A DNA stretch of 56,739 nt, filler included, from Dirinaria sp. TL-2023a (lineage: Eukaryota): NCBI GenBank assembly GCA_051941275.1. It is 2 parts of 2 records of this genome, joined end to end, with 100 filler letters (N's around TTAATTAATTAA, not from the genome) between each part and the next. Parts side by side here need not be neighbours in the genome. Positions count along the whole stretch, not along the records: positions 28,448 to 56,739 come from JAVEBF010000128.1; 1 more part is not named here. One strand, written 5' to 3'. The position numbers and the translations under genes are program-made. This document shows positions 4,804 through 53,622 of the stretch, piece after piece. Each line of letters begins with the position of its first letter. Position 1 is the stretch's first letter. The notes under the pieces are model-generated. The model was not told where the DNA came from. It worked only from the letters and a program-made list of their open reading frames with translations, and ran no database searches.

Positions 4804-5164
4804 ACTAATGAGAATGGATGGTCTTTCGGTTGTCCTAAGCTTTCATTGCTTTTCAGAATCAAAGCAAAAGATGCGTCTTGAGCTTTTGCAGGTTCACGAA
4901 CGATGAGGCAACACGCTGACTAAACGCCAAGGTATGAATCCTCCTTAGATACCCCATTGGGATTAGTGGATAATGTCAATGCGATATTCGGAGACGAGGG
5001 CGAGTTCGGGTACCTGGGCTCCTGGGTAAATTGCCACTCAACAAAAGACATGTCCCGAGATATGGCTTCATGCAAACGCTCCGCAGCGCTGGCGAGACTA
5101 CTTCTATGTATATACTAGAGATCCCCTCTCGTTGATTCTGCAATCTCCATGAACATTATTCGTC

Positions 5165-8100
5165 ATGTCCGGCGCCGAGGGTCTCGTGCTTCTAAGCGTT
5201 GCGGCGAATGTATTGCAATTTGTAGAATTTGCAACTGAGCTTTGTGGCCGTATACGGGATTACTCCAATGGCCCAGGTATGCCAAGGAAGCTCGCCGCGC
5301 TGGCTGACCAATTGGCAGACCTGGTAGCCATTATAAAATCAAGGTCAACTTCACTCGATACTGATCCATTGGAGGAGCAGGTGGCCGGAAGATGTTTAGC
5401 TCAGGCGGAGGAGCTATCGCTTTTGTTGGAAAGCTTGAAGGGTTCCAAAAAGGACCAAGATCACTGGTGGAAGAATGCTCGGAAAGCACTTAAGTCTTTA
5501 AGCCGTGCTGAGAAGATCGAGGAGCTTCAATCGACGTTGAACAACCTCATCAATACTTTAAGTTTGCAGCTCTTGATGAAGACAAGGTTAGCATCTCGTA
5601 GGCCTGTAGGTCAACTTTCCAATTCCCTAGCCGAAGTCGTTTTCATGGAAACATCCTTCCACTGCTCCATCCCTCTCGTCGGGGAACGCTTTGCGGATAG
5701 TGATATTGGGCTCATTTTATTCGTACTAAGTTTCAGTTGACCAATATGTCTCTGAGCCGAGCTTGATGGGGTAAAATACATTAACCTTTGAGTTCGCAAT
5801 ACCCGAATATGATGAGGCTGCAGCGTCAGCTAATACTGAGCCCTATTAGGGAAACAAATGCCGATGTAGATGATAAGACGACGTCTATATTACGGATGCA
5901 GAATGACCAGGTCGAATTGCTTCGTGAGATCTATCGACTCAGTCAGTTGAAGCTCGAGGGCCCGGGCGAACATATCAAAGTCGACCAGTCTGTATGGTTA
6001 GTTGCCGTCAGCAGGAATCCTGACTTCGTAGGTCGTCAGCCTATCATCCAGGAGCTCGAAGAGCGACTTGCCGGTAGACCAGATGTGATGCAAACAGCAG
6101 TCCTTTTTGGACTTGGTGGTATTGGGTGAGTGTCTTTTCCTGTGCCGTCCGTTCATAAGCTTTGCTCCTTCCCATTATGACTGCGGCTTCAGTGCGCATG
6201 GTTGGGTCTATCTAGTTTCCCTTTCATCAACATTACTATGAGAATTTCACCTAGTACAGCATTCCAACTTGTCTACTGGTTGGATTGAAGTTTAGACCTG
6301 GCCCCGAAAACGTCTCGTTAGCTATAGTATCAAATGAAAGAATGGTGGACAGAATATTCTTGATCGATCCTTGCTCGATCACTGATTTGTGACCATCACT
6401 CGCTGGGAGTAGAATCTGCTTTGGCTCGATGGGCAGCTAACCTTAAGCCCATATAGCAAGTCGCAGATCGCTCTGGAATTTGCATATCGCCAAAAGCGGA
6501 GTTCACACGAGCTATCTGTCTTCTGGATTCACGCTACAAATTTTGCACGATTCGTCGAATCGTTTAAACGAATAGCATCCGCACTAGACATACCAGGGCT
6601 AGAGAATCCCGAGGTAGACGTGTTGCAACTTGTCCGAGACCACCTTGAGATCAAGCATAGATGCGACTGGCTTATGATAATCGACAACGTTGACGATCGA
6701 TTCATGTTCTTTGAGGACGAGAGCTACAAGGGAAAGCGATTGTGTGAATATGTACCACAGAGCTCACGTGGAGCCGTCCTATATACTACGAGGAATAGAG
6801 AGATTGGTGTCGACCTAGACCATGATCGGAATCCTATTGAGGTATGCTCAATGAACGTTAAAGAGGCTCGTATGCTACTCGGCCCAAAACTCACAGCCGA
6901 GAGCACTCAAAGTCAGCAAATCGAACTGCTTGAGGAATTGGTCTATCTTCCACTTGCTATCACACAAGCAGTAGCTTTCATGGTGAAACGTCGTAAGAGC
7001 ATCCGCCAATACCTCGATGATTATAAGCAGAATGACTCTACACGACTCAGATTACTCAATCAGAAATCGCTATATCACGGCCGCGAAGCAAGACCGCTAG
7101 AGTCCGTAATCACTACATGGAAAATCTCGTTTGAGTCAATAGAAACAGAGAATCCAAGGGCAGCGAATCTATTGGCGGTAATGAGCTTTCTCGACCGTCA
7201 AAGCATACCAGATAGTCTATTGATCATGGACGACGAAGAACCATTTGATTTTGAAGATGCTGTCGAAATCCTTAATGCCTTTTCGCTCATCGCACGGAAC
7301 GAAAGGAATGACGCTTCCGATATGCATCGTCTTGTGCAGCTCGCTACCCGGGCTTGGTTGCTGGAAGACAAAGGCTCAGCTGAAAGGATAGCTGCAGAAG
7401 CTTTAGACCTGCTGTCCGCAAAGTTTCCGAAAGGTTGGTACGAGAATTGGAGTACTTGCTCCATATTTCTACCGCACGCCGACGCTTTACTTGATTCAAT
7501 CAGTGTGCGTACAGACTCTGAAGAAGCTTCAAAGGCCAAACTCCTTCTCAACACTGCCTCTTATCTTAGAAGGCAGGGCCGATTCGGGCCTGCAGAGTTG
7601 CGCTCGGCCGAATCAAAAGATATATTTGAACGCCTTTATGGATTTGAGCACGCCGACACGCTTGCAGCTACTGCAGAATATGCAATGACAATTCACAAGC
7701 GGGGCTCATTCGAAGAAGCTGTACGGCTACAGCGAATTATCCTGAAGGGTAGAGAAAAGGTAGGCGCATGCCCTTATTGAAGAAGTAGTGCTCGCTGAAC
7801 AGAGAGTAGGTACTGGGTAAAAGTCATCGTCTAACACTTGAAACACTCAACGCTCTAGGTTATGATTTAAGAAGCTTAGGCAGGTATAGGTCAGTGCGTA
7901 CGAACTGTTTTGAATCCTTGATGAGATCAATCGACTGAGACTCTAGCACAGAGAAGCAGAACAGGTTCATCGACGAGAGATGGTGGAAAAACAGAAATTG
8001 CTGGATCAAGATCCTCATGACTTTGGCTTACAAGCGGATCTGCTTGTAGCTGTCAACAATTCTGCACGTCTACTTTCCAATCAGTACGTCTGTTCCAGTC

Positions 8101-9727
8101 CAATTTTCCTAGCTGTATCATTCAGTTCCCTGGCACAAGGCAGCGAGCGATGACCGAAAATGGCTAGTAAGCTCACCGCGTTGAATTTCCCTCTTACCCA
8201 TAATGAACAATCATCCCATGTAAACTATTAGCGTGGCTTCTTTAGTGACCTATGAGGTGGTCATTGATTGGCGTTGATGCCTGAGCTCCTTAAATTTTGA
8301 AAACTTGATCAGGAATACAAATGTACTGATCTCGTGAGACTCACAGAGGCAAATATGCCGAAGCAGAGCGCATGCATCGAGATGCACTCAAGAAGAGCAT
8401 GACTCTCTTGGGTCCTACTCATCCGGATACTTTGATTACAATGGGCGAGCTTGCTAGTGACTTACGAGACCAGAATAAGCTTGAAGAAGCGCAGAGAACG
8501 TACGAAACATTGCTTGCCAGCCGCGGTCAAGTCCTTGGCGACCTCCATCCGGACACACTTCTCTCGAAAAGTAATCTGGCGACATTGAGGGGCAGACAGG
8601 GGCAGCAGGACGAAGCTGAGAGACTATACCGAGAAGTGTATGAACACGAATGTCAAGTGCTTGGAAAGCATCATCCTTCATCTCTCAATACTCAGCACAA
8701 TTTAGCCTGTGTACTCGCGGACCAGGGCAAGGCTGAAGAGGCAGCAGATACGTTCCAGGAAGTGCTCGAGGGCCAAAATCGTCTGCTTGGAGTTTCCCAT
8801 TCCGACACTCTTACGACACGTACGAATTTGTCGATATCACTAGGCACCCTAGGCAAAAAAGCCGAAGCTGAAGTTATAGATAGGCAAACGTTGGAGCTTT
8901 CCAATAGTCGAGCTGAGAAGAACAGCGCCCAGCACATGCGCATCCTGGCTAATCTATCGACACTGTTGGCGGATCAAGCGAAGTTCTCTGACGCAGCGTT
9001 CTTCCGACGTCAGGAACTCGACTTGAACATTGAGCTGCATGGTTCGAACAGTGGCGAGGCGCATTCTTGCCGTCAGGCACTGGCTCATGCATTATGCCGC
9101 CTTGGCAAGTTAGACGAGGCCATTGCTATGAATAGCGAAGTGCTTGAATATAGGGTGGAAGCGTTAGGCTGGGAGCACGTCGATACGCTTTCAGTCCTCT
9201 GGAACCTTGCGCTCTGCTACCGCGACGCAGACAGACTCCATGAAGCTAAGCTGAAGTACGGTCAACTGGTGGAGATAAAGTCACAGAAATACGGCCCGGA
9301 CGATTACCAGGTGCTCGAAAGCCTCGTACAGCTGGCATGGGTGCAGCAGCAATTGAAGGAATATCCCGAATCGGAGAAGAATTATCGTCGACTTCTTGAA
9401 GTACAGGCAAAGCTCTCTGGCCCTGATGATTTGTTCACGATCATGATTACTAATAATCTGGCTTCAGTGCTGCATTATCAACGTGAGGATCAAGAGGCTG
9501 AGAGTCTCTTCCGCACGGCTTTTGCGGCACGCCATAAGGTCCTTGGCCCAAATGACCGGTTGACAGTGAAATCTCGTCGTACATTAGCAGAGTTTCTAGA
9601 CGATATTGGGAAGCCCGACGAAGCGGTCTCATTGCTGGAGCCAGTGATGAATACTTCTGACACCGTTATAACGCGTTCTGCAGCTCCAGCCGAGCCTGAA
9701 GGCCTGGTTCAGGAAAAGAATAGTTAG
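5165..9727 (+). CDS. Fungal NLR-like STAND protein: SesA/HeLo-like N-terminal domain + NB-ARC + kinesin-light-chain-type TPR repeats
   Basis: Six exons that splice in frame: 5165-5586, 5850-6125, 6457-7759, 7810-7889, 7952-8083, 8347-9727. Motifs: SRNPDFVGR, Walker A GLGGIG|KSQIA split by intron 2, Walker B WLMIIDNVDD, VLYTTRN, YLPLAITQA, MHRLVQ; then about 42-aa repeats LGxxHPDTL..NLA. N-terminus MSGAEGLVLLSVAANVLQFVEFA is SesA-like. Confidence 0.9.
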
Positions 9728-20968: not shown

Positions 20969-23457
20969 TCATGTTCTGAGCCCATCAGTTTGGACTCTTT
21001 GCACTAATTCTGGCAATGCTCCAGCGATCTTCCTCCCCTCGGCTCTGACAGCATCTGCCTCACTCACTCTGCCTTGGATCTCGAGTGTGTCTCCAAGCAG
21101 CCCTGCACTGACACTCATCCACAACGTGTCCTTGCCTTTATTTGCAAGACTCTGACTTGCCCGAGCGCTCTTCTCCGCTTGCTGGCCCACAACACCCCTA
21201 AAAAATTTCCAACTCATAAGATTGAGCGTCATACACATGAGTTGGTTGTTAGCAACAACTTTGGCGGCCTGTAGCGCATTTTGAAGACATTGCTTCGTGC
21301 GCACGATGGTTTCAGCTGACGGTGCAATGGCAAGAATGAGATTGTAAGCGCTCATCAGTGCTTTGTTAGTGTTTTCAGCGCATAGGGGGCCCAGACGATC
21401 GATAAGAAGTGCAACTTCAGGAGAAGTAGGCGTGCGTGAACGGATGATGAGCAGTGAGTTGAGTGCTGCGAGGATCGACATATCTAAGCAGTGCTTGGAA
21501 GGAGCAGGCTTGTTCGGATGAGGTAGGGAAAAAGTCGGGCTCTGGAAGATCCGAAGTGCGGGATCGAGACGGCCAGTACCTTGATATATGAGCGCTTCAA
21601 GATAAATGACGATAACACGAAGGTCGGCAGGTACGTCGCCTTGCATTGCGTTCATGTCCTCCTTCAAAAGGCGCAGTCGGTCCGACGCTGCCGACCATGC
21701 CGTACGAGCACAGAGTGCAAAAGCAAGATGTAACTGCATGTAGCATTTCAAAGACTGCCACCACGACAACTGAGAGGCAGCAACAGTCGCTGATTGGGCT
21801 AGCTCCTCAGCTGCTCGAATGTTCACTAGCAACCTTGTTAGATCACGTAAGATAGGACAGCTGAGGAAACAGACTCTCTTGCTTGCGAAGGCCCTCGTTC
21901 AGCATATGCTCTGACCTTTGTCCATCAAGCGGATTTTTGTGAGCGGTACATATACCGCTTAGCAGGTAGCCGAAATTGTAGATATACTCTTTGGGCATCC
22001 AGTTGAACAACAGCCCCTGATGGCCGTTTGTCCCGTCTTGAATGATTCCCTTACAGCTCTTGTCTTGCGATGCCTGTGTGTGATTTATAGGTACCAAAAA
22101 ATTGCCAGTCTCGCTCGAAGATGAATTAGTATGTACTGCCTCGAGTGTCGTCTGCATGGCTTGCAACTTGGGTACTGCCTTTGCTGGGTCTAAGTATTGC
22201 AAGGTACAGCATAGGTCCACGAAATTTGTCATCGTAGCCAGTTGAGAGATCTCCGCCACTGCAGAATCAAATTGTAGGCTCCTGGCCGCGGCAAGTGCTC
22301 GCTGAGCCTGCTCAAGGGTCTCAGCACTACTACTCATCCGAACGTAACAGAGAGCTTCTAGAATTGATGCCAGAGCCGAGATTGCTCCGTCACCATGTCT
22401 TTCTGAAACTGATACAATGAATCGTAGTTGACCCAATGCGGAAAGAACGTCTTGACGTAATGACGACTCCAGACATAGAGATACACGAAGGAAGCGAAAA
22501 GCGTATACCCATGCGACATGCTGATAGCTAGACGGGTGTTAGCAGACATAAGCAATACTACGTCTGCACACTGACGCTTCAATGTCCCCTATTACTCGGT
22601 CAATATACTTCAGTGAAGCTTGGTTGTTTCGTCGATGTAAAACCCGAGCTAGAAGGTGCTGCATATTATACTTGAGATCAAAATTGCGCAGCTATTCAAC
22701 GTCAACAATGCGACCGGAAAAGTCAAAGCTTTCATCCAAAGCGCGTACTCTGTCACAGATGCTAATCTACACAACGTCAATACAGTCATACAATTGAGGA
22801 TTATCATATGGCAAGTACCCCTTTACTCAACGCTTCCTCGGCTTCCATGAAGTTTTCAGTCTCATCGTAGAGTACTGTGGCATAACGCAAGCGAATTCGA
22901 GCTTCCAGTAACGGTTGTAGTCTCCAATACTAATCCATGATTAAAGGACATCCTTGTTACAGAAACATCCATACCTTCAATACGGCTTCCAAGCAACCCA
23001 ATCCAGTAGCAATGAGTTTGTGATACGTCTGAGCATCCGATCGTCGTTTCATCCAAGCAACCTTAGACCCTCCAGCGTAGGCTGCTGCGAAATAGTCTTC
23101 GGCCAGAGAGACCAGAAGCAGCTGATGCTCAACCGAGAGCTGCGTAGGATTTGTTCGCACAGGCTCGACGGGCCTGGCTGCTGTTTTGATGCTCTGATGC
23201 CTCGGTGTATTTTTTGGAGAAGGAATTACGACTTGGACTGACTGAGACACTTTTGGCTGAACATCAGGCTGAGATCGAGGGTTCACGCCATTGGTTGGGG
23301 TACGAATCAAATCTACATGTTTGTTCTCGAACGCAATATGACTGGAAGAAATGCCATTGGCGTACGTCTGATCATACGATTTCCTCGCTCCATTAGAGAC
23401 ATATTGATGAGGTAGATGTCCATCCCTGGTATGCGCATTCTCATAAGGATAGGCCAT
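20969..23457 (-). CDS. SCC4: Cohesin loader subunit Scc4/MAU2 (Ssl3)
   Basis: LLVSLAEDYFAAA..YHKLIATGLGCLEAVL, RIRLRYATVL.DET, WVYAFRFL, and C-terminal NQLMCMTLNLM..KFFRGVVGQQAEKSARAS..LWMSVS, as in fungal cohesin loading factors; multi-exon, internal boundaries not fully traced. Confidence 0.82.
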
Positions 23458-23839
23458 GTCTCGGGTATGAAAACAGTCTACAGCCTACACGTGGGGGACC
23501 CACTTGGCTGTACGTTATCCATCTCGTTCGAGGCTCTCGAGGCTTTCGAAGATTTCATGATAGGGAAGAGACGATTGAGGTAGCTTTTAGGTGTCAACAT
23601 TCGAGATGGCGTTCAACGCGGCTATCAAGTCGTACGCTAGCCGCGTTTCAATACACATGCCTTCCATTTATGATACATTACGCCTCGATGTTCAAGACGA
23701 CTTGTGGCGGAAAGACTAAGTATTGTAGCTTAACATCCTTGGTCAAGGAGCCATGTCAAAAGGTTTGCAAAGATTCTTCAAGTTTGCTGCTTTATTAGGA
23801 ACATGGATCTTATCCTGATCAAGCATCAGAGTGTCGAGA

Positions 23840-36540: not shown

Positions 36541-38411
36541 TCATGCGACTACTGTTTCGTGTACGCTACTGCCACTGGCTTTCTCCGCACTAGATTTCCT
36601 TGCCTTTTGCTTTTCTGCCCACTGCCTCGATGCAATTCTTCCTCGTTCGGCAGCTTCAGCCCTGGCTTTCTTGGCTGCTTCTTCTCTGTCTTTCTTCATC
36701 CTCTCTTGTTCCTCTTTGGCCGTCTGAGTCCGCTCGAAAACTTCCTTACCGCGAGTGGTATGAGGGGCATTCTTGCCATTGCTTCCAGTGCGCTGGAGAC
36801 CTGCCGCTGACGAAAACCGCGACGTGGTCCGGTCGAGCAATGACGAGCGAGCTGACGTGTACCCAGCGGCGGAAGACTTGCGCTTGGCCACCGTGAGGGA
36901 GGAATTGTGCTTGCTGGCTTCGGCAGGAGCTAGAGAGGTGGGACGCTTCACTGTAGCCGGCTTCGATCCGGAACCTGGTCGACGCGCGTCCTTGTTATCT
37001 GCGTCATCAGCCTTTGCAAGGCTGGTTCGTGAATTATTGATCGCCGTCGACTTTACGTTAGCTGCTTGACTAAGCCGGACACCTCGGGATTTGGGATCCT
37101 TCTTTCTCGAGTCCACTTCTGACTCTTGCTGTCTCAGACGTTCTTCTCGCTGCTCTTTCAATTTGCGCGCAATCCCTTCCCCTGGCAGCTCAAATGAGGA
37201 GCGAGTTGGTGGTTTCGTCGACCTTACTTTGGGTGCTTGGGCTCGGACAGATTGCTTGGGGGCAGTTCCCGCATTCTCCACCTGTTGCATTCGCTGCTCA
37301 CGCTGCTCTTTCAATTTGCGTGCCACGGCATCACCAGGGAGCTCGAAAGTTGAAATGGTCGGCGGCTTGCTTGATTTGACTGGTTGGAAGGGAGCTTTGT
37401 GGATGGAGCTGACTCGTTTGTTGCGTGGTCCGGTTAAAACAGACTTTTTTGATGGAGCTTGGCTTTGGCGTTCCGAGAGTCTACGATTGTCCACCCGAAC
37501 GTTCGGGGGTTTTTTCGCTGTAATTCTCCCAGACTTCTCAGTCAATTCCTCGCTAGCTTTGCTTTGCTTGCTCGGTTTCACTGGGGTTGCGGGAGCATTG
37601 ATGTTTGGAATCTGTTCCCCAATTTTCTCAATCTCCTCCTCGAAAGCGTCAATGGCATCCACGCAGTCTTCGATGCGCATAATGGGTTTCGCCGGAGACC
37701 TAGCCACAATATGTTCTTCGAAACTATCCTCCTTGATTGGAGATTGCTGCTCCGCCATGTGCGTATCAGTGTTTGGCTTTTCGACTACTTGGGAATGTGT
37801 TTTGTTCTGTGGTAGTGAGTCTGGGGTGGTCTTCGTTGGAGAATGAAAGTCGACCGCCTGGACAAATGAGTCGTCAATTATGTGTGCTCTTTGCTTATTT
37901 GGCTCGCCGCGTCCGGGTAAGGCAGATGCCCCAGCACCCCCGACTGCTTCAACGGCAGGTGTGGATGATCTCTCATGCTCATCTTGTATGATGACCTGCA
38001 AAGAGCCTAGTGCTCGCGTCAGTTCTGAATTACAAGTCCACCATACAGTCTGCAGGGCTCACTACATTCAGATCCACCGTTGACGAGAGTTTCACGAACA
38101 TCTTCTACGGCAGAAGTAGTCGAGCTTTGCTTATCATCCTCTAACACTTCCATGGACTTGTTAATCGCTTCGGAATGTCCGGTCCTCTTTGCGCCCTTCC
38201 GCTTCCGGCCCTTTGCAGGACCCTTCATTCTGGGTTGCTCGTCTTCGCAAATGATTGCCTCTGTCAATGGCTCCAGTGTGTTACCAGCAATTTCGCTCAG
38301 CGGTTCTCGATCTTGATGTGGTGTCGTAGGCAAAGGGACCGCGGCTGCGTCGTCCGTCGTTGAGAGAGCTGCGGCATTTGAGCGAAGCGCGGCGCGAGTA
38401 ATGCGCGGCAT
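36541..38411 (-). CDS. Conserved fungal protein with duplicated STKPPTxxxFELPGxxxARKLKEQRExR repeat (TPX2-like microtubule-associated candidate)
   Basis: MPRITRAALRS start, one intron near 38006-38061, RIEDCVDAIDAFEEEIE, two copies of the repeat, C-terminal helix EEAAKKARAEAAERGRIASRQWAEKQ. The function is inferred. Confidence 0.7.
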
Positions 38412-39415
38412 GGTGGATATGGATTTGAAGGGTAGACCGGTGGACAACTGGTGGACACTATTTTGCCAGTCAATATTCGAGGAAGAGTCGGCGCGAGGGG
38501 CGTGACACGAAGGTTTGTTTACATAGCAACAGCCGAGCCCGCCCTAACGATAGCGCAAAGTCGTGACACACGCGCTGAAAGTGGTGTCTAGCGCGTCGCG
38601 TTCAAGCCAGGGGGGGGGGCGGGGGTAAGGTGGTAATTAACCGCATGACGATAGACTGCTAGTCGACGATTGAACCGTTATTGTTAAGGTAGATAGGATA
38701 GTGGTTAATGCGTAGCAATTACTAAGAGTACCGAAAAAAGTTCTCACGCAAAAGAATCGAAATGAAGTGATATACTGAGCGAACAAGCACCCGTTTTTTC
38801 CAGGGCACGGGATCATGATGAGACGAAAACAAACGTTGCCGACCAGACGCTACATCGGGGTAGATTTGGAGGGAATGAATTCAATGCCTGTACTCAAGGT
38901 TTAGTCAGTGGAGGATGCTAATCCATTCGTTAACCACGGAGTCTACTGCCAATGGTCATAATACTTTCGATGATGGTGCTAAACAGGCCGGAGCTTGCTT
39001 TCTCACAATACTACTCTCTCATCTCGAAAGTGCTCCTCCGAATCGAGGTCAATTGAAGATGCCTAGGATTAGTCCTCGTGTGAACTTCATGGAGCTTGAC
39101 GACCCATGCGCTAGTATCCAACTACAGTTGGGGAGTATTATTTTATCTTCGTTCGAAGCCTCTGAGGTATCCCTCAAGAATGGCTGAATGGTAAATGTAG
39201 TAGCTAAGTTCGAATTCGACTGGCTCACATTCCACCCATCTGATTGGCGCTCTTCCTCATTTTGTCCATGGCCTGAGCGACTCAATTTTCATGCAACATC
39301 ATCAATGAGCATAGTGTCTTCAGCACCACCTCAAAACACTTCAACATATATCGTAGCATCATACATGACCCACGAGCCGAGTCGCAGACGCGATATCAGA
39401 CTTAGTAGGCATCTA

Positions 39416-39949
39416 TCACTTCCCATCCTGGTCTGGCTGGTACTCCGGTTGCTGCGGATCGACAGGAATTCGAACAAGTGTCTGTGGTAATATAACCCTA
39501 GGTATAGAGTCTGTTCTTCCTTCAGCCACTTGATCTTCGGCCGGAGGCTTCGGTACTATCACTGAGGCTTATAAGCCAAGATACAGATATCGTGCTCGAT
39601 ACAAGTGGTACCTGAGGCCATTTTGATTGCTCGAAGCACATTGTGCCAGTTGGATAAGACAGCTGCTACGGCTGTTGAATCCACAACGTTAGCACTTTCC
39701 ACTAGGAGTGTGGACGAATTCACCTTCAGTCCCATTGGACAAAGTCGATATCTTCTGCTCTAGTGTTTGCATCTGCATAGCTAAGCCGCTGCTGAGGTCA
39801 CGGAGCCTCTTAAGGTTTTCAAGTTCGGCTCTTTTCTCGTTAATGCGTGCCACCAGCATCGGTGAAGGGTTGGTAGAAGAAGTCTGCGCACCTCCCAACG
39901 AAGGGTGCCGCAGGCTACTAGATGGTAAAGGCTTATTCTGGTAAGCCAT
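39416..39949 (-). CDS. DAD2: DASH/Dam1 complex subunit Dad2
   Basis: RINEKRAELENLKRLRDLS..L..Q..TLEQK..TL.NGTE|AVAAVLSNWHNVLRAIKMAS|..LPQTLVRIP; two introns. Confidence 0.9.
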
Positions 39950-40095
39950 AGCGTTTGAGAAATGTCCGAATTTAGACCTTTTGCATAGTATCTTCTTGGT
40001 CTACCTCATGTAATTGTAGCGCGGGGTCCGCGCTAACCAGTTTTAGGGCAGCCTCGGCTAATGCTTAAGGTAAGGTAAGGTAGGCAACAAAATTT

Positions 40096-40129
40096 TTGTT
40101 TACACTAAACCCTCACAGGTCGTAAACAA
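40096..40129. promoter_or_regulatory. Pair of inverted forkhead-type sites in the DAD2/SGO1 bidirectional promoter
   Basis: TTGTTTAC (40096-40103) and GTAAACAA (40122-40129) within the 230 bp separating the two ATGs. Confidence 0.6.
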
Positions 40130-40179
40130 TCGGAAAACGTCTCACTTACTATCTGGTACACACATTTTCCAAATGCTTT

Positions 40180-42602
40180 ATGGCGCGATTGAACGATGCT
40201 TCAGCAGCAGCAGAGTCTGTGGACGCTTGTCAGCTGTTCTGCCTTCCTCTGATTGGGCCTATCTGACATTGTAAAGTGAAACGCCGTTTTGTCCGCCAAA
40301 ACCGTGAGCTTGCAAGGTACGACGATTAGTTATTGCTTGTCCAGAGTCACGTCTAAATGACCTTAGGATCAATTCAAACCAGTCTGTTCGAATTCGAAAC
40401 CTTGAGAACGAAATATCACGTCTACTGTCAGAAAATATTGCATACAGAGAGCGCGTAATAAAGCTGCAGCACGAGGTTGACAGGAGCCCGGGCTTGGAGG
40501 CAAGGGAGAGCATCACAACATTCAGATCACAGCTGGAATCGAAATTAGCAAACTTGACTGAGCTGGTCCAAGAGCTTGGAAAAGTACAGGAGAGCCTGGA
40601 GCCTCGGAAAGTCTCGTGCAGAAGATCTATGCCCCAAAATTCTCCTAAAAGGTCCCCAGATCAAAGGAATTGGAAGAATAGTCTTTGTCTTTCCGAAGTG
40701 CCAGGTGTGGTGGGTGGCCGCTTGCCGCCAATCGTGGAGGACAAATACTACCCTAGGCAAACTCTAGAGTACGATCCTACATTCGATCAACTTGACCTGT
40801 GACTAAAACACGGACAGAAGCGAAGAATTGCACGATCTTCTAAACGCTACCAATGCAGTGGGCTCGCCAGATCTAGGCCCGCCGCCTGTAGTGTCATGGC
40901 AAGATTCAGATTCGGTGAAAAATGAGTCTGTGTCCACCTCACCAGTGAGAGAAAGGGACGCCGGAAGTGCGGACCATCAAAAGCTACCATTGCTCGCGAA
41001 CTTGGAGACACGAAAGAAACGAAGGGAAAGCACGCAGCACTCGGCATCTGAACGTTCTATGCCGCGAGACTTCCAGTCAACCCAGCGGCTGCAGCCAAGC
41101 GAAGTTTCCACTCAACCCTTGAAAGCTGGGGCGAAGCGGAAGCTCAATGCCCGAGACGACCAGACAAAAAATGAATCGATCAACGCACTGAAGGAAAATT
41201 GCGTCTTAGATCCCAAAACGGAGGCTCAAATCTTAGACGCGGATCAGCCGACAGTTGCTAATACCGACGATTTGTTATGTCTCGATACATCTCGAAGCCG
41301 AGCACGAGGCACCGGCGGATCTCGTGAAAAGGACAACGAAAGCCTGCCAGCTATCACGGACAAACCGCGGCAAGTGCTGGCGCCGAGTAAGCTGCTTTTA
41401 TGCATGTTACCAGATAGGAGTGGACTAATACGAGCCCAGAAAGCGTTAACGCCGACCCGTTGCAATCGCCGGCCAAGGCGAAAAAAGCAGTTGTGGATGA
41501 CAAAGTTTCGGATGGTAAGCATAGCACAAATGGCAAGCCTAGAGATCGGAATCGATCGATCGAAAGGCCGCTAAATCGCAAGCACGAACGTCGGCGGGAT
41601 GACACTCATGAACAAGTCCAAAGTCCGGGGAAGGTGGCAGACGAGGCCTCTGAAACCCCTGCAGCCACTCCACGAGATCATGCGTTGCCTCAATCTGAGC
41701 CCTCAGCTGTTCGGCCAGGCTCGCGAGACACGCCGCCGCCACCAGATCTGAATCACGAAACATCAGCTGCGAAAGCTTTCGAGCTGGCGGGCAGAGCTAC
41801 GCGCCGCCCTCGTGGCACGGTCAGCTACGCCGAACCAAGCCTGCGAGACAAGATGCGCAGGCCAACTAAGGAACTGGTTGACGCTGTCGGGGCGGACGAT
41901 CGGCCGCAGATAATCAAAGTGCAACAAAAGCCTACGGAGTCTGGATACGACACGATGCAAAGGATGATTGTGAAGCAAGAAAACCTTGGCGATGATGAAA
42001 ATTGGAAAACTCTGCCAATCGCCACCAAACGCGAAAGTCAGAAATTCATGGAAACCGAGCCGACGAGTCCTCGGACTAGCAAATCAAATCCTATGGAAGG
42101 TCACCCTCCAATGCCAGTTGCTGGTCACCCAGAAGAATGCTCAATGAGCATTGAGCGCAGCGAACGGACTGCCAGAGCAGTCTCGAACGCTGGATCGACT
42201 ATCGCAGCGCTCGTATCAGGTACACACAACGTGAAGAAGCGAGAGGACAAAGCAGCGATGAAAACGAAGGAATCCAAAGATATCTTTGAACTACGTAGTA
42301 GCTCGCCAAATGAGACCACGATGGCTGTGGCCACAATGACTGGACCCATTCGAGGATCTCGCCGTCATTCCAGTATCTCGGCCAATGTGGATGCCAAAAC
42401 TAGAGTGACGGGCTCGGATGGCCCTGCATCGAGGAGAGGCGAGCGTAGAAGGGAAAGCACCAGGCCCGCCTCAACGGGGCCGCGAGAGGGCGAGTACGGA
42501 GTCAGCGAACTGAAGAGTATTAGCAGTGTGGCAGATCTGGTCGAGACTGGGATGACCAGGGCGGAGCGGGCAGCAAGCCGGAGGAAGAGTATGATGCTGT
42601 AA
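40180..42602 (+). CDS. SGO1: Shugoshin
   Basis: N-terminal coiled coil MARLN..|LKRRFVRQNRELAR|INSNQSVRIRNLENEISRLLSEN; C-terminal SGO motif RRPRGTVSYAEPSLRDKMRRP; ends RRKSMML; four introns. Confidence 0.93.
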
Positions 42603-42783
42603 TGCTGCATTGGAATATGGCGTTCTGAAACAATGAACGCTGCAGCGGGGTACTGGGGTGGGCATCCATTATTCTACGAAGGACACGTAGCGCCGGTTGG
42701 ATCCACCGAATTGTTGTGGCAATCCGGTCATTCGACGTTCCATGGCGCTTATCTTGGACGTTAATACCATCGAATGAGCATCC

Positions 42784-42815
42784 AGTAGTAGTAGTAGTAG
42801 TAGCAGTAGTAGTAG
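42784..42815 (+). repeat. (GTA)n microsatellite
   Basis: About 10 AGT units with one interruption, downstream of SGO1. Confidence 0.8.
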
Positions 42816-45452
42816 CTGAGTCCACCCAGAGCGCACGTTAAGGAAATACGGTCGGCTAGATGCCTCCAAAACGTCAAGTACGAGGACAATGCCTCATCAA
42901 TGAACGAGTTTGGGGTGAAGGTGCACATTAGCAGTCAGGATATTGCGAAGGTAGATGGCAACGTGGATGGAGCGAGCAGATGTCCTTTGGACTGTTTCGC
43001 TCGGGGCCAGAAGTTGTTCATGGATACTGATTTTAGATCATCAAGTATCGCTCCTTGCTCTGCTGATGTAAAGTATCAACTCGAGGTGTGTGCGTGTAAG
43101 TGAGTATGCACACTAAGGTATGACCAAGTCCCGAAATCCAGATGCATTCTTCACAAAACCACTTGGCCTTTTCGGTTCACCCGTGCAGCCAAGCTAAAGT
43201 TCGCTGCCAGAGTGCCAGTGCCTAGAGGTAAGGTAAGTACTGTAAGGTAAGGTGCTACTCCAAGTACTAAGGTAGGAGCGGACATAGCATAATGTATATT
43301 ACTTCCGCTGCCATTTACCTTATCGTTCCATGAGACTTTTAGTGTATCTCGACTTACTTTATGCACTTCACTCCTTCTGGCGCTATGATACAGAGCCAAA
43401 GGTGGAGAGACCAATCCTTCCTAACGCCATGGGCCGTGTACGTAGACTCGGTACCTACAAGGTAAGGGAAGGTACTTCAGTCGATACCTGACCATCGGAG
43501 ATGCCTCGGGCACTACCTACCTTAAGTTCTTCTTACAACACCTAATGTAGGTAGTGCTCCGGGTTTTTTTACTTTCGGATCAAACCCCGCAAGTACTTCG
43601 TGAACAGGTACTTTTGTAAACTCAGTACTTGAGTTTGATCAGGGTGGCAAGAATAATGAACAGAATTTGGCTGCTGATGCATGTAAGCTCTCACCCGGTT
43701 GCAGATCCGTCGTGCCTCGGTTCATTATACGACATCCCACACGGTGTTCAGTGCAACATGACGCAGCGCACCCCCCGGTAGCAGCGCTCTCTTCGCATTG
43801 CGTGGCATGCAGTAGAGTCATTCGGTGGGCCACAAGCCCACAACAGCGTGGCTCGACGTGGGTCGGCTGTTACAACGCTTGAAGTGGTGGAGACGATTCT
43901 GCAAGCGTCTCATTACGATCCGGAGTCCAGAATTGTTGGGGAAGGGAAAGGGAGCTGACTGCATCCAAGCGCTCGGTGCCTGGGCTAAGGCTGCAGGCAC
44001 ATGCATCAAGAACCGTTGTTATTGCTTTGCGAGTTGCGAACCCCCTGCTCTGTTTCGACAAGCCGATAGCTCTTGCGGACGTGACTCGTCCTACTAGGCC
44101 AAGGTACGGAGTTTTAAGGTACTGTACTACTAAATAAGGTACCTTGCCTTACGGTTACCTCATGATCTTCAATCATATTGTGGAAGGGGAAAAAGCAGTA
44201 AAGCTCATTACTACCGTAGTCTGGTGGCTAAAAAGTGTGAGCGCGAAGCGGCCCGCTTCTCATCCATCTGGCTCATCTGCCGGTTCCAGATCTGGCGCTT
44301 TGCTGTTTGGAGACACGGCCGAATGATCGGACTAGATTGGCTTGCACTAAAGTACGGAGTAGAAATGGTTTCTTCTCAGATCCTGTGGATCCTGCGCGAT
44401 AGAAACCGATCGAGCCATAAGCCAGCCAATGTCTGCCTTGGATGTAGGGGCAGAAGGAAGAATATCTCCGAGCATGACCACAGCCTAGCCGCTAGATCGG
44501 GCAAGACACCACTATCCACAACGATGCGGCAAGCTAAGCTTATCTGATCCTCAGGTTAGCAAGTCTGCGCCAATTGGAAGCCAGGGTAGATAAAGGGGGG
44601 GGAAATGTGGCATTCAAGTAGGTCGGTCTCTCATCAGAATTTTACTTGTCTGCGTAGCGTGGTATTAGACTGCGCGATCGGAAAGCGTAACGGTGAGCGT
44701 AAAACGTCCACGTCTGTCCGGCGATCCGTTGCCCTGTCTGCCATCGATCTGTTTCCCGCAGCTTTCCTTTCAGTTGTCCTTTCATCGTTCAGAACAGCAA
44801 ATGTGAGCTGAATGTGCAGATCTTAAGATGTGAGAGCTCCTGCTAGTTACAGCGTTACAGCACAATCAAGCTTATTCGATCTTGATTTCGTTTGTTGCGT
44901 AGGGACTGAGTCTGCTGGGAACAGATGCGGTTTCTGGAGAAAAGACCGTTGAAAGCATTTAGATCATCAACAGCAGCTATCTCTCGTAATTCGAGTTGAG
45001 TGGATCTCATCAGTGACTTGTACATAAGCACCTTTTATCGTAGGATCATTCACACCATGGAGTATGTACATAATAGCCTCGAAAAAACATGCTCAACCGA
45101 TGAGCTTCGCTCATCACCATTTTAAAAACTTCTTGCCCGAAACGCTGATATGCCCTTGTGCTGAACCATTGGCCAAATTGTAAGTTGCGAACGCCGCTTG
45201 TGAATGTAGCATTTGCGTGCCGCTCCAAGAAACCTAGATGCAAGGAACTCCCCACAAGCCCGATAGGGCGCTTTTGTACAATGCTTAGAAATCCATGTGT
45301 TTTTTGTTATTACACTTGAAAGATGTGAGCTGGAGTGAAGACCTGAAGGCATCCTGGGTGACAGAGCACTCCTGCCTAACTTGCTTCGACGAGTGTGGGT
45401 AGCGCGCGGTCGTGTTCCGGAGACGGTCGGAAGCAGGATCGAATGCCATGGT

Positions 45453-52830: not shown

Positions 52831-53622
52831 TCATCTGTTAATAGATGGGATTTCTTTCCAATTTCAATTGATCAACATCGATTCGGCGGCAAAAATCCGA
52901 GTGTTTAGAGTTGGCTAAATCGAAAACTTTTGCATTCGCGATCGAATCGTGTCTTAAGTCTGTACTCTCTCCTTATCAGATGCCTGTCCTCAGGTTGAAG
53001 AACTTTGCTCAAACTTCTCTATCGTACTACAGCGTGCAGCCCAATCTATGGAGCGAAAATCGTCCTTCTAACTATGACATGTCATTCCAACCATCTTCTC
53101 CCCTGATATATCTTATTGCATTTTCGTATGAGATCACTGTGCTGGACAATTTTAGTCAGATCCCGGCATTCTTTGTTGCCCAACCCTATAAAAGGCCAGG
53201 GACGAAGCATTCTGTGGATTTCTGTCACATCTCCGTTGTTCGCTGAACTTTTCCTTCGTGAGTAGTACGCTTTTGCTTCTTCGAGATCCTTTGGTATTCT
53301 ATAGCTTACCTTTCTTCAATTGCGCGTGTGTGAACAGCCTTTAATTCCCCATAGGCGCTTCCGATAGGATCACTACCCTTGTGGATCGAAGGTTCTGTTT
53401 CACCACCTGAGGCGATTACGACTGTAGAGTCGCTCGCGTCTGCAAAGGCGATACGGAAGAAGCATCAACGGAACTCCAAGATGATGCAGTGCTGCATCAC
53501 ACCAACATTCCCGGTGTTCCACTCTGTGCATCCGGAGCCAGCAGTTTTCTCCTTTTTGTTTACATCTAGCTCTTGACGGCTGGTAGGTAGCCGCCCAACC
53601 TTGCAGTGTTCAAACACCACCT

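Follow-up and report, generated by a model that had tools for sequence, protein, structure and literature searches.

Are the genes that act at the kinetochore and spindle of a filamentous fungus switched on together, and does one promoter element do it? The question is raised by a 56,739-nucleotide (nt) stretch of DNA from Dirinaria sp. TL-2023a (the whole stretch analyzed, called here the window), in which a gene trio at 36541..42602 consists of the DASH complex subunit gene DAD2, the shugoshin gene SGO1 and a third gene, designated gene 1. DAD2 and SGO1 are divergently transcribed from a short spacer that contains the forkhead-type word GTAAACA. On comparative evidence the pair is old, selectively maintained and shares this conserved forkhead-type element. 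Gene models, read from the sequence, are as follows.

36541..38411, minus strand: gene 1 (third gene), exons 38411-38063 and 38006-36541, intron 38062-38007, 604 amino acids (aa)
39416..39949, minus strand: DAD2 (DASH complex subunit), exons 39949-39724, 39671-39612 and 39561-39416, 143 aa
39950..40179, no strand: shared DAD2-SGO1 spacer (bidirectional promoter), 230 base pairs (bp) between the ATG at 39949 (minus strand) and the ATG at 40180 (plus strand)
40180..42602, plus strand: SGO1 (shugoshin), ATG at 40180, stop at 42602, five exons (40180-40228, 40277-40316, 40367-40768, about 40817-41387 and about 41449-42602)

Conservation of the DAD2-SGO1 pair

The identities of both genes hold, with matches above the curated Pfam thresholds. 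DAD2 matches PF08654 (DASH_Dad2) with 48.8 bits against a cut-off of 26.9 (E 9.7e-13), and all 58 homologues from a protein search carry the same domain. The N-terminal coiled coil of SGO1 corresponds to PF07558 (Shugoshin_N, 35 bits against a cut-off of 30, E 1.2e-8) and its C-terminal basic motif to PF07557 (Shugoshin_C, 34 bits against 23.3, E 2.4e-8). These are the names that the first-pass annotation of this DNA had assigned. Its description of two head-to-head genes with ATGs 230 bp apart was also accurate, and a search of the window for GTAAACAA returned exactly the four copies that it had listed, at the same positions.

Relatives of the locus were collected from metagenome contigs by scanning with two DAD2 peptide patterns derived from DAD2 alignment A2. 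This gave 242 pattern matches, 102 of them encoding a relative, from which the best 80 loci were kept. Synteny was scored by tblastn with the window's own exons as queries. Among these best 80 of 102, 58 loci have at least 1 kilobase (kb) upstream; a head-to-head arrangement of SGO1 and DAD2 is found in 57 of them, the exception being L070. The SGO1 start peptide MARLN is kept in 40 of the 41 cluster representatives described below, and in those 40 the two ATGs lie 230-575 bp apart (median 358). Taxonomically the loci are a mixture, some being closest to Lecanoromycetes. Over 757 aa, gene 1 of locus L023 shares 67% identity with Lachnellula (Leotiomycetes), and DAD2 of several loci is 74-81% identical to a Dothideomycetes species. 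Note that placement by DAD2 alone was rejected as too weak and that only long gene 1 matches are informative. DAD2 and SGO1 are a conserved bidirectional pair, head-to-head with starts less than 1 kb apart, that is kept in distant relatives. Full-text literature searches returned no description of this pairing or of its motif, and a paper on conserved gene order (PMC2871058) does not mention the pair (0 matches to shugoshin, DAD2, DASH or Sgo1). A rare rearrangement of the cassette is seen in L053, where the SGO1 match lies downstream of DAD2 on the same strand.

The forkhead-type site and its companion

Within the spacer of the window, two copies of the same 8-mer form an inverted pair 18 bp apart, with a third element alongside.

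40083..40088, minus strand: RFX-like half-site GTTGCC (GGCAAC on the plus strand)
40096..40103, minus strand: forkhead-type site GTAAACAA (TTGTTTAC on the plus strand), reading towards DAD2, its 7-mer core beginning 154 bp upstream of the DAD2 ATG
40122..40129, plus strand: forkhead-type site GTAAACAA, reading towards SGO1, 51-58 bp upstream of the SGO1 ATG

GTAAACA is present in 51 of the 65 raw extracted spacers. After clustering at ≥80% identity, which left 41 clusters (window included), it was found in 28 against 3.57 expected, using a background of 0.167 per kb taken from the noncoding-like parts of the same loci. Among the 7042 7-mers tested, it is the commonest by number of spacers containing it. 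The count was repeated for the true spacer, defined as the sequence from the SGO1 ATG to the DAD2 ATG and available for 40 de-duplicated clusters. GTAAACA occurs in 26 of these (2.34 expected), the full GTAAACAA in 16 (1.19 expected) and the degenerate form RYAAAYA in 35 (13.67 expected). The remaining noncoding-like sequence of the representatives, ∼108 kb in all, holds 19 copies of the 7-mer, of which 6 are gene 1 promoter sites.

Conservation of the site is confined to the word itself. Stacking the sites on their core gives aaW-GTAAACA-Aa as extended consensus, with flanks that carry at most ∼0.5 bits and fall to ∼0 within 3-4 nt. A MAFFT alignment of nine lichen-like spacers (A4) places the site as an island, with consensus AATGTAAACAAAGC, in DNA that is otherwise unalignable. 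It lies 112-318 bp from the DAD2 ATG and reads towards DAD2 in lichen-like loci and towards SGO1 in another group. The site is conserved beyond chance, and this conservation is independent of its orientation. The first-pass annotation had named the loss of linkage or motif in relatives as one outcome that would speak against co-regulation; for DAD2 and SGO1, both linkage (57 of 58 loci) and motif (26 of 40 spacers against 2.34) are retained.

A companion emerged when 6-mers up to 45 bp from the forkhead-type site were counted without bias (26 clusters, 1132 6-mers tested). The top-ranked word is GTTGCT/AGCAAC, found in 11 of the 26 clusters against 1.16 expected, and GGTTGC is third with 8 of 26. 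Combined as the RFX-like half-site GTTGCY, the element is found no more than 45 bp from the site in 12 of the 26 clusters, where 2.2 were expected. All three promoter sites of the window, including that of gene 1, have a half-site within this distance (AGCAAC at 38525, GGCAAC at 40083); the single non-promoter copy at 53556-53563 has no GTTGCY within 45 bp. The full RFX palindrome GTTGnCntggcAAC was not noticed in the flanks displayed, for which no systematic search was made.

Other words in the spacer scan were set aside. The 7-mer GCGCATA had the lowest P value (18 of 41 clusters), and most of its copies are at the SGO1 end, in or adjoining SGO1 coding sequence. The enriched 7-mers CAGAACC, AACCGCG and TGGCGCG also appear to derive from the SGO1 coding region (QNRE and the start M-A-R), by reading rather than mapping. 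The CGCG-containing words among the top 7-mers look like SGO1 coding sequence as well, and no word of the MluI cell-cycle box (MCB) type, ACGCGT, is prominent in the top 25.

Further blocks accompany the site in some groups of relatives. The block TTCTCCGC(A)CTAGCG, about 20-45 bp from the forkhead-type site towards DAD2, is carried by the lichen-like loci L017, L025, L001, L007, L009 and L011; a related form, CCGCACTAGTG, occurs in L020, L028, L029, L031 and L052. This second group also has a separate block, GGTTAGA, 17-19 bp from the site. Neither TTCTCCGC nor GGTTAGA is present in the window or in L006, its closest relative. Two additional features of the window belong here.

40018..40034, no strand: perfect palindrome AGCGCGG-GGT-CCGCGCT with a CGG-N3-CCG core, 69-85 bp upstream of the DAD2 ATG and without an aligned counterpart in relatives (alignment A4)
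53556..53563, minus strand: fourth GTAAACAA, outside any promoter and not part of the module

The last of these lies in a convergent 3' region, just 3' of an NSUN2-like gene, in keeping with the caveat already attached to the copy near 53556 in the first-pass annotation.

Gene 1: linkage, promoter and protein

For 33 loci at least 4 kb of downstream sequence is available, and in 22 of these gene 1 follows DAD2 on the same strand. No gene 1 lies within 4 kb in L015, L016, L034, L061, L063-L066, L068, L073 and L080. Three independent signs of the adjacency were noted: NCBI locus tags that are neighbors in two lichen assemblies, contig sizes that coincide between the hit lists of the two proteins in at least 15 instances, and the annotated protein P0099, which joins DAD2 exon 1 to the body of gene 1. 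This fusion is a gene-model error, and as such it betrays the adjacency of DAD2 and gene 1. In L056 gene 1 is inverted (on the opposite strand), another rare rearrangement of the cassette.

The promoter of gene 1 carries the same composite as the spacer, together with CGCG words.

38515..38522, minus strand: forkhead-type site GTAAACAA (TTGTTTAC on the plus strand), 104 bp upstream of the gene 1 ATG (38411)
38525..38530, minus strand: RFX-like half-site GTTGCT, 2 bp from the forkhead-type site; GTTGCTATGTAAACAA on the gene strand
38570..38602, no strand: MCB-like CGCG cluster, AACGCGACGCGCT on the gene strand plus ACGCGC, with cores at 38570-38575 and 38590-38602

The site about 100 bp upstream and the CGCG cores had both been pointed out beforehand, and both are where they were said to be. 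In relatives, the gene 1 ATG was defined by N-terminal matches and 400 bp upstream were examined (34 loci). GTAAACA was found in 19 of the 34, at -86 to -180, comprising all lichen-like loci plus L047. ACGCG/CGCGT cores are upstream of gene 1 in most relatives. In an alignment of seven lichen-like sequences (A5), the block AACGCGnnGCGCG is followed about 40-60 bp later by CCGGTTGCTATGTAAACA. A shared site in all three genes, as originally claimed, is therefore upheld in part: widely for DAD2 and SGO1 and, for gene 1, within the limits of the linkage and promoter counts just given. A putative three-gene regulon is well supported for the lichen lineage, and wider support is confined to the DAD2-SGO1 pair. 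About 200 bp upstream of gene 1 there is also a G-run, 17 bases long and interrupted by one C (GGGGGGGGGGCGGGGGT, 38613-38630).

The gene 1 protein is 100% identical to a 604-aa hypothetical protein in NCBI from a Dirinaria sp. metagenome-assembled genome, and nearly all of its close relatives are from lichen-forming fungi. The family as a whole is wider, with 742 clusters at E≤0.001 among 1.84 billion representatives and named members in Lecanoromycetes, Dothideomycetes, Leotiomycetes and Eurotiomycetes. Its labels are “hypothetical” or “Carboxylesterase family protein” throughout; no carboxylesterase family was found in Pfam scans of gene 1 proteins, and the window protein has no Pfam match above threshold. 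A PDB profile search returned only two chance matches (FapC, E>4), and the ESM Atlas gave only unnamed or “Carboxylesterase family protein” clusters with scores ≤0.89, or nothing.

Conserved features of the family (alignments A1, A3 and A6) are an N-terminal M(P)RVTRAALR, a C-terminal AAERGRxASREWAEKQK, SPxK/TPxK sites and the block RIEDSVEAIDALEE. There are also one to five copies of KSTKPPTKxxFELPGEAxAxKLKxQREERLK. The window protein has two such repeats, of the form FELPG[DE]..ARKLKEQRE, encoded at about 37270-37368 and 37123-37215. The copy number of KSTKPPTK..F(E/Q)LPGE..KLK.Q.EER varies from one to about five between classes (P0217, P0228 and P0268 are Dothideomycetes-type; A3), so the repeat array is evolving quickly. 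At about 38280-38309 the window gene encodes an N-terminal motif, REPLSEIAGN, which resembles a destruction box (D-box). The consensus for the APC/C (anaphase-promoting complex/cyclosome) is RxxLxxxxN, and the gene 1 motif is one residue longer. Its form RxPLxE[IV]xxN is conserved across the family, with L38 invariant in A3 and at ≥90% in A6, and P37 at ≥90% in A3. The AlphaFold2 model (60 sequences) has a mean predicted local distance difference test (pLDDT) score of 51.3, with 381 of 604 residues below 50; its isolated helices coincide with the conserved blocks. Gene 1 is predicted to encode a largely disordered repeat protein of an uncharacterized family.

The gene had been called TPX2-like. 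The FELPGE...FKARP repeats of the family do look similar to those of TPX2 with their FKARP motif, and the likeness extends to disorder, short basic helical repeats and the FKARP-like motif in relatives. FKARPV is conserved in the family; the window copy is degenerate, PKSRGV. No family model backs the name. PF06886 was above threshold in 0 of 20 and 0 of 18 members, and the window protein had no match. The one match obtained in these 38 proteins was sub-threshold (P0268, 1 of the 18 members; residues 596-637, E 0.018, 15.4 bits against a cut-off of 25), in a region that by our own reading of A3 appears to be the ...EE..FKARPVP stretch. A literature search for TPX2 in filamentous fungi gave chance matches only. 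We consider gene 1 a reasonable candidate for a mitotic role on the basis of its motifs and regulatory context.

Some further features of the window lie outside the trio. A (GTA)n/(GCA) microsatellite is found directly 3' of SGO1 (42783-42816). A gene for a cohesin-loading factor of the Scc4 type is at 20969-23484 on the minus strand (Pfam Cohesin_load in three open reading frame pieces). It is ∼13 kb from DAD2-SGO1 along the joined window but in the other part, beyond the filler, and no GTAAACA is near it, all four window copies being elsewhere. An NLR-like gene or gene pair at 5153-9727 on the plus strand combines a SesA N-terminal domain, DUF7779 and a long TPR_10/TPR_12 array, an architecture that we presume to be the typical fungal non-self-recognition type.

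Candidate regulators, alternatives and meaning

The most likely account of these data is that the conserved DAD2-SGO1 pair has one shared promoter, driven through the forkhead-type site, from which both proteins would be co-produced before segregation. We judge this account more probable than the rest put together, with some room left for doubt. A forkhead factor with a cell-cycle role (class Fkh2/Sep1 or Hcm1) would bind one site and act in both directions, possibly working together with an RFX factor of the Sak1/RfxA class, and the DASH subunit and shugoshin would then be made jointly ahead of chromosome segregation. In the lichen-forming lineage, gene 1 carries the same composite, GTTGCTATGTAAACA, with the MCB-like CGCG cluster and is probably co-regulated. 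Forkhead control of the DAD2-SGO1 pair is probable; the class of binding factor, periodic expression and any mitotic role of gene 1 are inferred. Forkhead control of segregation genes is an already known kind of regulation, to which the DAD2-SGO1 case would add a member and not a new kind.

The Hcm1 site of budding yeast, WAAYAAACAAW, overlaps the present consensus. To our knowledge, DAD2 and SGO1 of that yeast are not a divergent pair, and the dad2 and sgo genes of S. pombe (SPAC1805.07c and SPBP35G2.03c) presumably lie on different chromosomes, given their name prefixes. Functionally, the Hcm1 regulon is the best match to a DASH subunit plus a shugoshin: a forkhead factor activates chromosome-segregation genes before mitosis. 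Hcm1 is credited with ∼180 late-S genes, nearly half of them in chromosome organization or spindle dynamics (PMC2876151), and forkhead control of budding-yeast chromosome-segregation genes via Hcm1 is also described in PMC11093055. Architecturally the likeness is to fission yeast, where mitotic promoters use Fkh2, Sep1 and Sak1 and include at least one divergent target pair, and where Fkh2 targets combine GTAAACAAA with GTTGnCntggcAAC, a further motif to which the RFX factor Sak1 binds (PMC4538799). RFX half-sites are possibly functional there, one being the older “PCB” element (PMC4538799, Garg et al. 2015). The present loci share the forkhead consensus GTAAACAAA and have an RFX-like element of the GTTGC..GCAAC type nearby; they differ in having GTTGCY half-sites only (in the 12 of 26 clusters). 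The RFX consensus ends in GNAAC (PMC6174557).

In filamentous species, the FKH1- and HCM1-type factors of Magnaporthe oryzae have been connected with how sensitive the fungus is to cell-cycle drugs (PMC4174854), Beauveria bassiana has an Fkh2 orthologue that directs its cell cycle (PMC4424799) and RfxA regulates cell-division events in Talaromyces marneffei (cited in PMC6174557). Conserved divergent gene pairs sharing promoters, for example histone pairs, are described in fungi (PMC6900853, PMC2871058), and DAD2-SGO1 resembles these in being head-to-head within 600 bp and kept over long evolutionary distances. Such pairs are kept together presumably because one regulatory region serves both genes.

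Several observations weigh against forkhead-driven co-production. The motif count of the window is not by itself significant, with the 7-mer at expectation (4 copies against 4.71, with 67 of 100 shuffles reaching 4) and the 8-mer present 4 times against 1.15 expected (4 reached in 3 of 100 shuffles); what stands out is placement, with three of the four sites in two adjacent promoters. Among relatives, the exact 7-mer is missing from 13 of 41 clusters, which contain degenerate RYAAAYA variants at best, and in L061 and L063 the sole copies are within the SGO1 transcribed region. Binomial P values overstate independence due to the relatedness of the clusters by descent. The RFX-like element is a half-site only, in under half of clusters. 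At gene 1, the site is absent in 15 of 34 loci, whose gene 1 is closest to Leotiomycetes; these mostly retain ACGCG/CGCGT cores around -290 to -370, which should be considered a lead only, given the frequency of 5-mers. The locus search may have left whole classes such as Eurotiomycetes and Sordariomycetes unsampled, because it relied on two DAD2 peptide patterns; Penicillium DAD2 (P0178 in alignment A2) has ELENLRQLR and ARIAAKK at the pattern positions and fits neither pattern. In S. pombe, finally, dad2, sgo1, sgo2, dam1, duo1 and dad1 have a cluster value of 0, are not periodic and have no Fkh2, Sak1 or Sep1 chromatin immunoprecipitation (ChIP) flag in supplements 3 and 6 of PMC4538799, so the yeast precedent does not cover these particular genes.

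A different view of the site is that GTAAACA is functional in a role other than the cell cycle, with a forkhead or other factor serving a compact bidirectional promoter as a constitutive activator or a nucleosome-excluding “pioneer”; sharing of the promoter would then suffice to keep the pairing, and there would be no mitotic regulon. In its favor, conservation speaks for selection on the word and not on timing, the S. pombe genes dad2, sgo1 and sgo2 are neither periodic nor flagged as Fkh2, Sak1 or Sep1 targets (PMC4538799), and M. oryzae has two further Pezizomycotina-specific FOX (forkhead box) factors whose role is unknown according to PMC4174854. We consider this unlikely, although worth keeping in mind: the companion GTTGCY matches the architecture of fission-yeast mitotic promoters, DAD2 and SGO1 both act in chromosome segregation, and gene 1, which carries the same composite, also has MCB-like CGCG words and a D-box-like motif that fit cell-cycle control.

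A protein outside the forkhead family might instead bind the word. The CAAAG core is associated with high-mobility-group (HMG)-box factors and is present in the GTAAACAAAG/CAAAGTAAACA copies, overlapping or abutting the 7-mer in about 12 of 27 aligned sites; a factor that reads a longer composite is another candidate, and additional conserved blocks do occur close to the site (TTCTCCGC..CTAGCG in the lichen-like loci, GGTTAGA in a second group). Over half of the sites are without CAAAG, however, the invariant part is exactly the 7-bp forkhead core between flanks of little information (≤∼0.5 bits), and the flank preference aaW...Aa fits the S. pombe Fkh2 consensus GTAAACAAA, which together make such a factor quite improbable. 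That the three genes share the motif by functionless coincidence or close-kin ancestry, as the window count at expectation and the many near-duplicate loci might suggest, is hardly credible and already contradicted by the spacer counts and flank information content: 26 of 40 de-duplicated spacers have the site against 2.34 expected with unalignable DNA around it, it flips orientation between lineages yet keeps its place, and only 19 copies, 6 of them at gene 1 promoters, are found in the ∼108 kb of other noncoding-like sequence.

Beyond forkhead-driven co-production of DAD2 and SGO1, a larger and rather doubtful possibility is that a cassette in at least three classes of filamentous ascomycetes combines a forkhead/RFX bidirectional DAD2-SGO1 promoter with a disordered spindle or chromosome protein, the gene 1 product, that would be regulated by cyclin-dependent kinase (CDK) and degraded through its D-box. 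We know of no securin yet identified in Pezizomycotina. If the cassette exists in this form, gene 1 might be, for example, a functional TPX2 analogue or a securin-like regulator of that group.

How transcription follows the cell cycle has been charted well in two yeasts but barely in filamentous fungi, a group that accounts for most of the diversity of fungi and to which the lichen-forming species, hard to culture, belong. A short promoter that is conserved across classes and has one identifiable site offers a concrete, testable entry to forkhead control in Pezizomycotina. Gene 1 belongs to a widespread unnamed family, which by its context and motifs may reasonably be put forward as a candidate new mitotic protein. 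That a microtubule-coupling subunit and a protector of centromeric cohesion are so firmly paired suggests selection for their joint dosage or timing.

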